Positions 45,114 through 45,556 of a stretch of 51,439 nucleotides of DNA are shown in pieces (the stretch's first letter is position 1; the number at the start of each line of letters is the position of its first letter). The stretch is from positions 1-51,439 of IMG/VR virus record IMGVR_UViG_3300045988_173665, one strand, 5' to 3'. The position numbers and the translations under genes are program-made. The notes beneath the pieces were generated by a model that saw only the letters and a program-made list of their open reading frames with translations, was not told the origin of the DNA and did not search any database. The DNA comes from a virus.

Positions 45114-45153
45114 TTGTCTTTTTCTTGTCTTTTTTATGTCTTTGTGGTATAAT
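45114..45153 (+). promoter_or_regulatory. promoter TTGTCT, 17 nt, TGgTATAAT, overlapped by three direct TGTCTTT repeats at 11-bp spacing
   Basis: TTGTCTTtttcTTGTCTTttttaTGTCTTTgTGGTATAAT seen directly. Confidence 0.5.
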
Positions 45154-45190
45154 ATTAGCGTGTGATTAGCACAGAAAGGAGAAAAAGCAA

Positions 45191-45556
45191 ATGCAAAACC
45201 AATCAAGATTTAGTGAAGAATTTATGGCTTTGGAACGCAACAAAACTTTGCAAGGTATGGTTAACAATGAACTAATGAAATTAGGGCTAGACTGTCGATT
45301 AAAAGGCTTTAAATATGTTAGCGATATTATAACTTTAGCGTTAATTAAGCGTAAATATTCACGAACAACGATTGCCGAATTAACGCCATTTATTGCTTAT
45401 AAGTATGGTATTAAAGATTTTAGTGTGCAAAGGCAAATGCGATATGTTTGTACAATTAGAAATGCACGCAAAGAAACCGCCATTGATATTGTTTACAATG
45501 TATGGCACAAAATCAACACAAAAATTCAAGAAGAAAGGGAGAGTTATGTAAAATGA
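45191..45556 (+). CDS. Spo0A C-terminal (DNA-binding effector) domain-only protein, 121 aa, with no receiver domain
   Basis: LKGFKYVSDIITLALIK...IAELTPFIAYKYGIKDFSVQRQMRYVCTIRNA aligns with B. subtilis Spo0A [18 protein letters not shown]...[42 protein letters not shown]. Confidence 0.65.
   Translation: MQNQSRFSEEFMALERNKTLQGMVNNELMKLGLDCRLKGFKYVSDIITLALIKRKYSRTTIAELTPFIAYKYGIKDFSVQRQMRYVCTIRNARKETAIDIVYNVWHKINTKIQEERESYVK

Follow-up and report, generated by a model that had tools for sequence, protein, structure and literature searches.

Results

Organization of the locus

The window, that is, the whole stretch of 51,439 nucleotides that was analysed, repeats its first 119 nucleotides at its end and therefore corresponds to a circular contig of 51,320 bp. 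The phage origin of this contig is confirmed; terminase, portal, major head and tape-measure genes are encoded on it, every gene lies on one strand, and the G+C content is about 29%. The terminase shares no more than about 23% identity with that of any isolated phage, and the replisome organiser and RtcB narrow the affiliation down no further than low-GC Firmicutes or gut phages. Neither tRNAs nor any Rfam family reaching the gathering score were detected in the phage genome.

The gene under study encodes a stand-alone protein of 121 aa and heads an operon (Table 1). Its start had been placed at position 45114 in an earlier note on this DNA, a position that falls in the promoter; the gene itself begins at 45191. 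An intrinsic terminator parts the operon from the upstream unit, the preceding gene of which encodes an unrelated protein of 122 aa (phrog_3754, function unknown). At the other end, the ATGA overlap with an SMC/Rad50-like ATPase gene, which had been claimed before, is indeed present, and the 616-aa ATPase is probably translationally coupled to the 121-aa protein. The ATPase gene opens the series of recombination/replication genes in the operon and is accompanied by genes for a RecT-like protein, a metallo-beta-lactamase (MBL) hydrolase and an ERCC4-type nuclease. The genes past the contig junction encode a protein whose PHROG matches are RusA-like and clamp-like, a DnaD-like replisome organiser and a DNA methyltransferase. 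When about 45 other ORFs were scanned with Pfam and PHROG, no further regulator, repressor, tyrosine-type integrase or endolysin came to light.

Table 1. Positions of the operon-leading gene, its upstream elements and associated genes in the window
Feature	Position	Strand	Details
Intrinsic terminator of the preceding gene (44707-45075)	45081-45108	+	12-pair stem, 4-nt loop, T-run
TGTCTT box 1	45115-45120	+	about -45 from nominal transcription start; context TTTATTGTCTTTTT; 17.5 bits, best in window
Sigma-A-type promoter	45125-45153	+	10/12 matches plus TG; -35 TTGTCT 45125-45130, 17-nt spacer, TG 45145-45146, -10 TATAAT 45148-45153
TGTCTT box 2	45126-45131	+	about -34, overlaps -35 hexamer; 16.8 bits, second-best in window
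TGTCTT box 3	45137-45142	+	about -23, in -35/-10 spacer; 15.6 bits, third-best in window
Ribosome-binding site AAAGGAG	45175-45181	+	9 nt before ATG; read from sequence
Stand-alone Spo0A_C-fold protein gene, 121 aa	45191-45556	+	ORF call, HMM, fold
SMC/Rad50/SbcC-like ATPase, AAA_23/SMC_N, 616 aa	45553-47403	+	ATGA overlap; TGA stop of the 121-aa ORF (45554-45556) over the ATG (45553)
RecT-like	47409-48308		same operon as 121-aa gene
Metallo-beta-lactamase hydrolase	48283-49023		same operon
ERCC4-type nuclease	49814-50347		same operon
DnaD-like replisome organiser	4107-4997		past contig junction

The 121-aa protein belongs to the Spo0A effector-domain family

A profile search and a structural comparison with 1FC3, both proposed in the earlier note, assign the protein to the family of Spo0A's DNA-binding domain. 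The Pfam profile Spo0A_C (PF08769) matched the ORF at 37.2 bits (E = 3.1e-9; gathering cut-off 25), with protein residues 24-89 covering positions 1-66 of the 104 in the profile. An AlphaFold2 model, for which 63 family sequences served as input, reached a pLDDT of 94.2, and the top seven Foldseek matches in the PDB were all chains of 1LQ1 and 1FC3 (TM 0.60-0.76), all others having E > 1, so that these two structures were its sole fold match. The predicted model thus displays the Spo0A effector-domain fold, a helical bundle with an embedded helix-turn-helix; since phmmer found no more than a marginal match among PDB sequences (E 0.1), the assignment of the fold depends on this predicted model. 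The helix-turn-helix is predicted at residues 58-89 and its recognition helix at 76-89, and the model contains two extra short N-terminal helices (residues 2-16). The receiver domain is missing, as had been claimed: the protein is only 121 aa long and yields no receiver match, and the upstream ORF is unrelated and lies beyond the terminator. The protein is therefore a phage-borne, receiver-less member of the Spo0A effector-domain family. The earlier identification as a Spo0A C-domain protein stands for family and fold, and is less likely to hold for Spo0A-like function. The alignment, described before as extending over the whole length, covers only residues ~24-92, and the motifs quoted then are those of Spo0A itself; the ORF reads RLKGFKYV, LTPFIAYKY and SVQRQMRYVC.

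Departure from Spo0A in the recognition helix and C-terminus

At the orthology level, judged from its sequence, the protein is not a Spo0A. The Spo0A equivalog model TIGR02875 gave 31.8 bits against a cut-off of 200, and the match was confined to model positions 136-222 of 262. Sequence similarity spans Spo0A residues 158-225 (a phage residue number plus 133 gives the Spo0A number; the B. subtilis Spo0A sequence was checked against 1LQ1), and both HMM and profile alignments end at the recognition helix (alpha-D). This helix lacks the Spo0A signature: the aligned phage segment is FSVQRQMRYVCTIRN, and F77-S-V-Q-R-Q-M-R-Y85 of the phage protein differs from S210-R-V-E-R-A-I-R-H218 of Spo0A at six of the nine positions. 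Val212, Arg214 and Arg217 are kept, while the changes include Glu213 to Gln, Ala215 to Gln and His218 to Tyr; in the profile alignment with B. subtilis Spo0A, Q80 corresponds to Glu213, R81 to Arg214 and R84 to Arg217. Glu213, Arg214 and Arg217 are reportedly the base-contacting residues of Spo0A, the effector domains of which are said to sit head-to-tail on tandem 0A boxes about 10 bp apart.

The C-terminal part of Spo0A, comprising the sigma-A-activator region and the helix with the PTNSEFIA motif, has no aligned counterpart, the alignments stopping at Spo0A residue 225. After Arg217 the phage protein is ~13 residues shorter than Spo0A, and PTNSEFIA of the last Spo0A helix is not present in it. 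The fold search suggests that the last helix of the predicted model fills part of the space of the Spo0A C-terminal segment. The effector domain also houses the sigma-A-activator region, on which Spo0A function depends (PMC4690370). The isolated DNA-binding domain of Spo0A binds 0A boxes without phosphorylation, a premise of the earlier note that is stated in the literature, and its specific contacts in TGTCGAA are G2, C4 and G5, a change at G5 cutting affinity ~10-fold (PMC3485338).

Helically phased TGTCTT repeats at the promoter

The gene possesses its own promoter, as had been proposed, with sigma-A-type elements that are crossed by three direct TGTCTT repeats at steps of exactly 11 bp (Table 1). 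TGTCTTT is depleted in the 51-kb genome (7 copies on both strands vs 17 +/- 3.6 expected), and its sole copies on the + strand are those starting at 45115, 45126 and 45137. When the whole genome was scanned with a matrix built from 24 boxes of 10 diverged loci, the three promoter boxes were the top three matches and no other box cluster was found. Regulation of phage late genes, which had been suggested as one possible role, is not supported, and its operation through TGTCTT boxes is rejected because box clusters are lacking away from the gene's own promoter. In a near-identical contig, box 3 is mutated to TGCCTT.

The box keeps G2 and C4 of TGTCGAA and is changed at position 5. The boxes are not degenerate host 0A boxes, an explanation ruled out because CGAA occurs in none of the 24. 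In the phage genome, 0A boxes (TGNCGAA) show no excess over chance (18 vs 13 +/- 3.7 expected).

Conservation of gene order and boxes among relatives

The family consists of 64 stand-alone proteins, 105-141 aa in length and encoded for the most part on contigs no longer than ~61 kb; 46 of them carry a precomputed PF08769 match. K38, G39, Q80, R81, Q82 and R84 are invariant in the 63-sequence family alignment. Wherever the flanks suffice, the gene order is kept (terminator, gap, 121-aa-type gene, SMC-like ATPase, RecT-like, MBL hydrolase), with one small gene inserted between the Spo0A_C-like gene and the ATPase in L003/L004 and L006. A comparable hairpin with a T-run lies upstream of the boxes in the relatives, and a promoter occupies the equivalent position in each of the 12 diverged loci. 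A search of IMG/VR for more distant QRQ-type relatives returned none, and a metagenome scan for such relatives yielded one further locus, also with a box.

TGTCTT boxes occur upstream of the gene in all 12 diverged relatives examined and are helically phased wherever they are repeated. For counting, 10 non-redundant loci with protein identities of ~35-65% were used; they share descent, and the per-locus counts are thus not independent. Each of the 10 contains two or three boxes at spacings of 10-12, 21-23 or 31 bp, corresponding to whole helical turns, and TGTCTT is the top repeated hexamer, with at least two copies in every one of the 10 upstream regions; the chance of finding at least two copies is 0.0006-0.005 in dinucleotide shuffles of each upstream region. 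Of the 29 + strand TGTCTT copies in these loci, 25 fall in the 130 nt upstream of the gene, and six of the 10 loci have all their copies there. The remaining two loci, L020 and L102, have a single box each, by the -35 element. TGTC is invariant in the 24 boxes while the flanks vary, and none of them reads TGTCGAA. Across loci, the number and spacing of the boxes shift while the motif and its phasing stay, which is how an operator behaves rather than a passively inherited sequence. The gene is thus the first of its operon, with repeated candidate operators over its own promoter, and this arrangement is conserved in the relatives.

Box positions relative to the -10 element differ among loci, from -23 to -70: 10 of the 12 have a box at -44 to -50, six have one in the spacer (-23 to -26) and four have one over the -35. 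A box abutting the -35 is the usual activator position and a box in the spacer the usual repressor position, and a spacer box combined with near-consensus -35 and -10 elements is typical of repression. Such near-consensus elements were found in most relatives. Owing to the variable positions, neither activation nor repression can be read from them.

Two classes of phage Spo0A_C proteins

A profile-free search of 1.8 billion representatives returned only 30 matches at E <= 0.001, comprising small stand-alone proteins and multi-domain proteins with two to five tandem Spo0A_C domains; no receiver-containing Spo0A was evident among these 30. Phage Spo0A_C proteins can be divided into two classes: (i) a canonical class, with at least 203 IMG/VR loci, in which the Spo0A-type recognition helix and PTNSEFIA are kept; (ii) the class of the window, with 64 members, which is characterized by S[VI]QRQ[LM]RY and a short tail. 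Genes of the canonical class are mostly located inside operons, with coding sequence directly upstream and without a promoter of their own. Where canonical phage genes were checked for boxes, neither TGTCGAA nor TGTCTT was found upstream, the sequence there being coding. By sequence, the canonical class appears to be a better candidate for Spo0A mimicry than the class of the window. Among 185,579 species genomes only one relative of the window's protein was detected, on a 9.7-kb contig of a 'Bacilli bacterium' MAG, which implies that phages of this class are rarely, if ever, encountered as prophages.

The idea that phages carry effector-only Spo0A proteins is already published, and the earlier finding is a correct rediscovery of it. 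Truncated spo0A homologues reduced to the effector domain were described in human-gut phages and proposed to exert signal-independent control of sporulation (Schwartz et al. 2023, mBio; PMC10294663), and PF08769 is enriched in mobile elements of Firmicutes (Jiang et al. 2019; PMC6907783). The exact protein is deposited in GenBank as DAW58810.1, "sporulation transcription factor Spo0A", filed under Caudoviricetes sp., and occurs on 485 contigs; five uncultured-phage proteins in the viral structure library BFVD have the same label and fold. A tblastn search of the ORF against 50,697 GenBank phage records gave no match, and megablast of the 43-49 kb region gave only one match of 69 nt, part of a group I intron. 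No experimental study of phage Spo0A_C proteins was found in the literature searched. The present subclass, marked by conserved operator-like repeats and by its place at the head of the operon, seems not to have been described before, the 29 homologues of Schwartz et al. having been compared by description only.

Discussion

Proposed autoregulation of the phage operon

The explanation that we favour, with a rough probability of one in two, is that the 121-aa protein is a phage transcription factor that autoregulates its early recombination/replication operon through the TGTCTT repeats. Copies of the protein would line up in head-to-tail order along a single DNA face, occupying the direct repeats that flank and overlap the -35 element and spacer of their own sigma-A promoter, in a manner resembling Spo0A on tandem 0A boxes, and binding would feed back on transcription of the operon with either sign. 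The half of the box shared with the 0A box (TGTC) would be retained and the other half changed, in parallel with the retention of Arg214 and Arg217 and the replacement of Glu213 by Gln; the changes in box and helix are consistent with a specificity that was re-tuned.

A more specific version is possible, and we put it forward tentatively: the lineage may have re-tuned the Spo0A effector fold (TGTCGAA to TGTCTT, Glu213 to Gln) as a phosphorylation-independent early-operon switch that acts head-to-tail on phased repeats and possibly cross-talks with host Spo0A~P. Because the TTTGTC half-site is common to 0A boxes, the phage protein and host Spo0A~P might act on each other's sites. If true, such cross-talk would couple phage early transcription to the host sporulation decision.

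Possible action on host 0A boxes

It is unlikely that the protein serves as a constitutive Spo0A mimic, which would bind host 0A boxes without phosphorylation and thereby block or force sporulation during infection. Such a mimic would be expected to combine a Spo0A effector fold with the absence of a receiver, as is the case here, and the phosphorylation-independent binding by the isolated Spo0A domain (PMC3485338), the preferential occurrence of truncated spo0A homologues in phages of spore-formers (PMC10294663) and the retained equivalents of Arg214 and Arg217 all fit this role. TGTC, common to TGTCTT and the 0A box, makes some cross-recognition conceivable, which would also be compatible with autoregulation. 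The inference in the earlier note that Spo0A-controlled host genes are the targets assumes Spo0A-like specificity, whereas the recognition helix differs at six of nine positions, including Glu213. It is further weakened by similarity that is undetectable past alpha-D, the missing PTNSEFIA tail, the TIGR02875 score far below the cut-off and the absence of 0A-box enrichment in the phage genome. None of the 24 conserved boxes is TGTCGAA, and the position at which they depart from it includes the G5 that matters ~10-fold for Spo0A affinity (PMC3485338). The canonical phage Spo0A_C class fits the role much better.

Other readings of the protein and the repeats

It is quite unlikely that the protein is a Spo0A_C-fold regulator with targets elsewhere, the TGTCTT repeats being bound by a host factor or forming an element of promoter architecture such as a phased T-tract or UP-like sequence. 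We infer from co-occurrence only that the 121-aa protein is the factor on the candidate boxes, and the boxes lie in T-rich DNA right after the T-run of the terminator, at positions that vary relative to the promoter; all three points agree with targets elsewhere. An invariant TGTC amid variable flanks and the depletion of the motif in the remaining genome speak against this reading, as does the turnover of number and spacing in helical phase, which is typical of a protein operator. The product of the adjacent gene is, moreover, the only HTH protein that always accompanies the boxes.

That the repeats mark a replication origin, with the protein as its initiator or regulator, is highly improbable. 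Direct repeats of ~11-bp periodicity do adjoin a recombination/replication module, and the arrangement would echo Spo0A binding near the replication origins of phi29-family phages; both the transcription and the replication of phi29 and Nf are influenced by the host's Spo0A (PMC2731898). Against this reading, there are only one to three short (6-8 bp) repeats, precisely interleaved with the -35 and -10 elements, the phage has a separate DnaD-like replisome organiser, and the GC-skew profile is featureless at the boxes and the 121-aa gene.

Implications and comparison with known systems

It has been proposed that phages use their versions of the Spo0A DNA-binding domain to take over the sporulation of gut bacteria. 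Not every "phage Spo0A" in the databases is a plausible mimic; there are at least two classes, and the divergent one, which brings along a conserved candidate operator, has the look of a regulator internal to the phage. The distinction matters for counts of "sporulation genes" in viromes. The protein of 121 aa and a promoter segment of 35 bp form a candidate protein-DNA model for the specificity of the Spo0A fold, in which swapping Glu213 and Gln against box position 5 could reveal how specificity is coded.

The 121-aa protein resembles the homologues of the type described by Schwartz et al., which are gut-virome, phage-borne Spo0A_C proteins without a receiver, in being both phage-borne and receiver-less. 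Unlike the canonical IMG/VR class, the class of the window always leads its operon and always has TGTCTT repeats. With the Spo0A effector domain itself (1FC3, 1LQ1) it shares the Spo0A_C match, the K-G-[FY]-x-Y motif and the equivalents of Arg214 and Arg217, and the candidate phage sites, like 0A boxes, are directly repeated at intervals of roughly one turn of the helix and contain TGTC. In contrast, the phage protein is only 18-22% identical to Spo0A, has neither receiver nor PTNSEFIA, and pairs the helix SVQRQMRY with the candidate box TGTCTT, where Spo0A has RVERAIRH and TGTCGAA.

Phages that carry sporulation sigma-factor homologues and alphaproteobacterial phages with CtrA-linked regulation (PMC9437464) offer a broader parallel, in which a phage carries the DNA-binding module of a host master regulator. 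These cases involve unrelated families, however, and the evidence here favours a phage-internal target.

Repressors of the Cro/CI type and phi29 p4 are operon-leading, autoregulating early regulators of phages. As in those systems, the leading gene of an early operon encodes a small HTH protein, and repeated operators, putative in the present case, overlap its own -35, spacer or -10. The 121-aa protein differs from the Cro/CI type in having the Spo0A_C fold instead of a lambda-repressor-like HTH, and neither a divergent partner gene nor a divergent promoter is present at its locus. Whereas Cro/CI-type operators are palindromic, the candidate sites of the phage operon are direct repeats, which implies head-to-tail rather than symmetric-dimer binding.

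Genome ends, promoters and gene content

The first 119 nt of the window are an exact copy of positions 51321-51439. The assembly is therefore circular (or circularly permuted), with a phage genome of 51,320 bp, and the operon led by the Spo0A_C-like gene crosses the contig junction. Related phages carry, a few kb upstream of this gene, a homologue of AgrB, a protein that processes quorum-sensing peptides. At roughly the corresponding position, the window encodes a membrane protein of 258 aa (39218-39994), for which no Pfam or NCBIfam match was found. Among the window ORFs that were scanned, none could be recognised as encoding an endolysin, a tyrosine integrase or a CI-type repressor. 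The features located in the window and in the related loci are listed in the table.

Features of the window and AgrB homologues at related phage loci
Feature	Sequence	Coordinates	Remarks
Small serine recombinase/invertase	Window	8780-9418	
RtcB RNA ligase	Window	16030-17268	215 bits; 61% identity to RtcB of Dulem virus 39 (source: lemur gut)
GIY-YIG/I-TevI-like homing endonuclease ORF	Window	42094-43071	Inside the apparent group I intron; I-TevI_DNA-bd and NUMOD1 matches
Metallo-beta-lactamase hydrolase	Window	48283-49023	Anti-Pycsar Apyc1 match below threshold (29 vs 50 bits)
AgrB homologue	L001	1764-2336	PF04647
AgrB homologue	L003	1274-1882	PF04647
AgrB homologue	L005	1888-2487	PF04647
AgrB homologue	L016	1-290	PF04647

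Four perfect sigma-A consensus promoters (12/12 matches; TTGACA and TATAAT separated by 17 or 18 nt, with an extended TG in three of them) lie in intergenic gaps at window positions 9816, 12851, 13027 and 38274, and none of the four has a TGTCTT box. The region at 9.4-13.1 kb contains few genes and many promoters. The near-identical contig IMGVR_UViG_3300045988_160830 (L013), which belongs to the same phage, reads TGCCTT rather than TGTCTT in the third box upstream of position 4001, a natural variant of the candidate operator.

An apparent group I intron

A group I intron appears to interrupt the gene at 41524-43558. The Rfam model Intron_gpI matched 42884-43157 with 44.4 bits (E = 1e-9), below its gathering threshold of 50, and the coding region of the interrupted gene seems to resume at about 43190-43558. 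At the equivalent place the related locus L001 has an uninterrupted gene of 246 aa (3383-4123), as do other relatives. Nucleotide-level comparison of the 43-49 kb region with GenBank phages gave matches only to Clostridioides phage CD1801 and a fecal phage, both of them within the 3' part of the intron.

Spo0A_C proteins outside the window

Canonical-type relatives, which keep the Spo0A recognition helix and the PTNSEFIA tail, were found on at least 203 viral contigs in a scan of IMG/VR (L030-L100), and 80 of these loci were retrieved. Most of the 80 encode stand-alone proteins with the 13-residue helix sequence and PTNSEFIA preserved; their genes are mostly operon-internal, with no upstream 0A boxes. 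The same scan returned full-length Spo0A with its receiver on contigs classed as viral (L021-L029, L032, L034 and L049), which may be host DNA. Six homologous proteins encoded outside the window (P0012, P0014, P0023, P0028, P0034 and P0035) have no receiver and consist of two to five tandem full-length canonical Spo0A_C domains, for example four in 454 aa or five in 849 aa. In these proteins, several copies of a domain with head-to-tail binding to direct repeats are joined covalently into an array.
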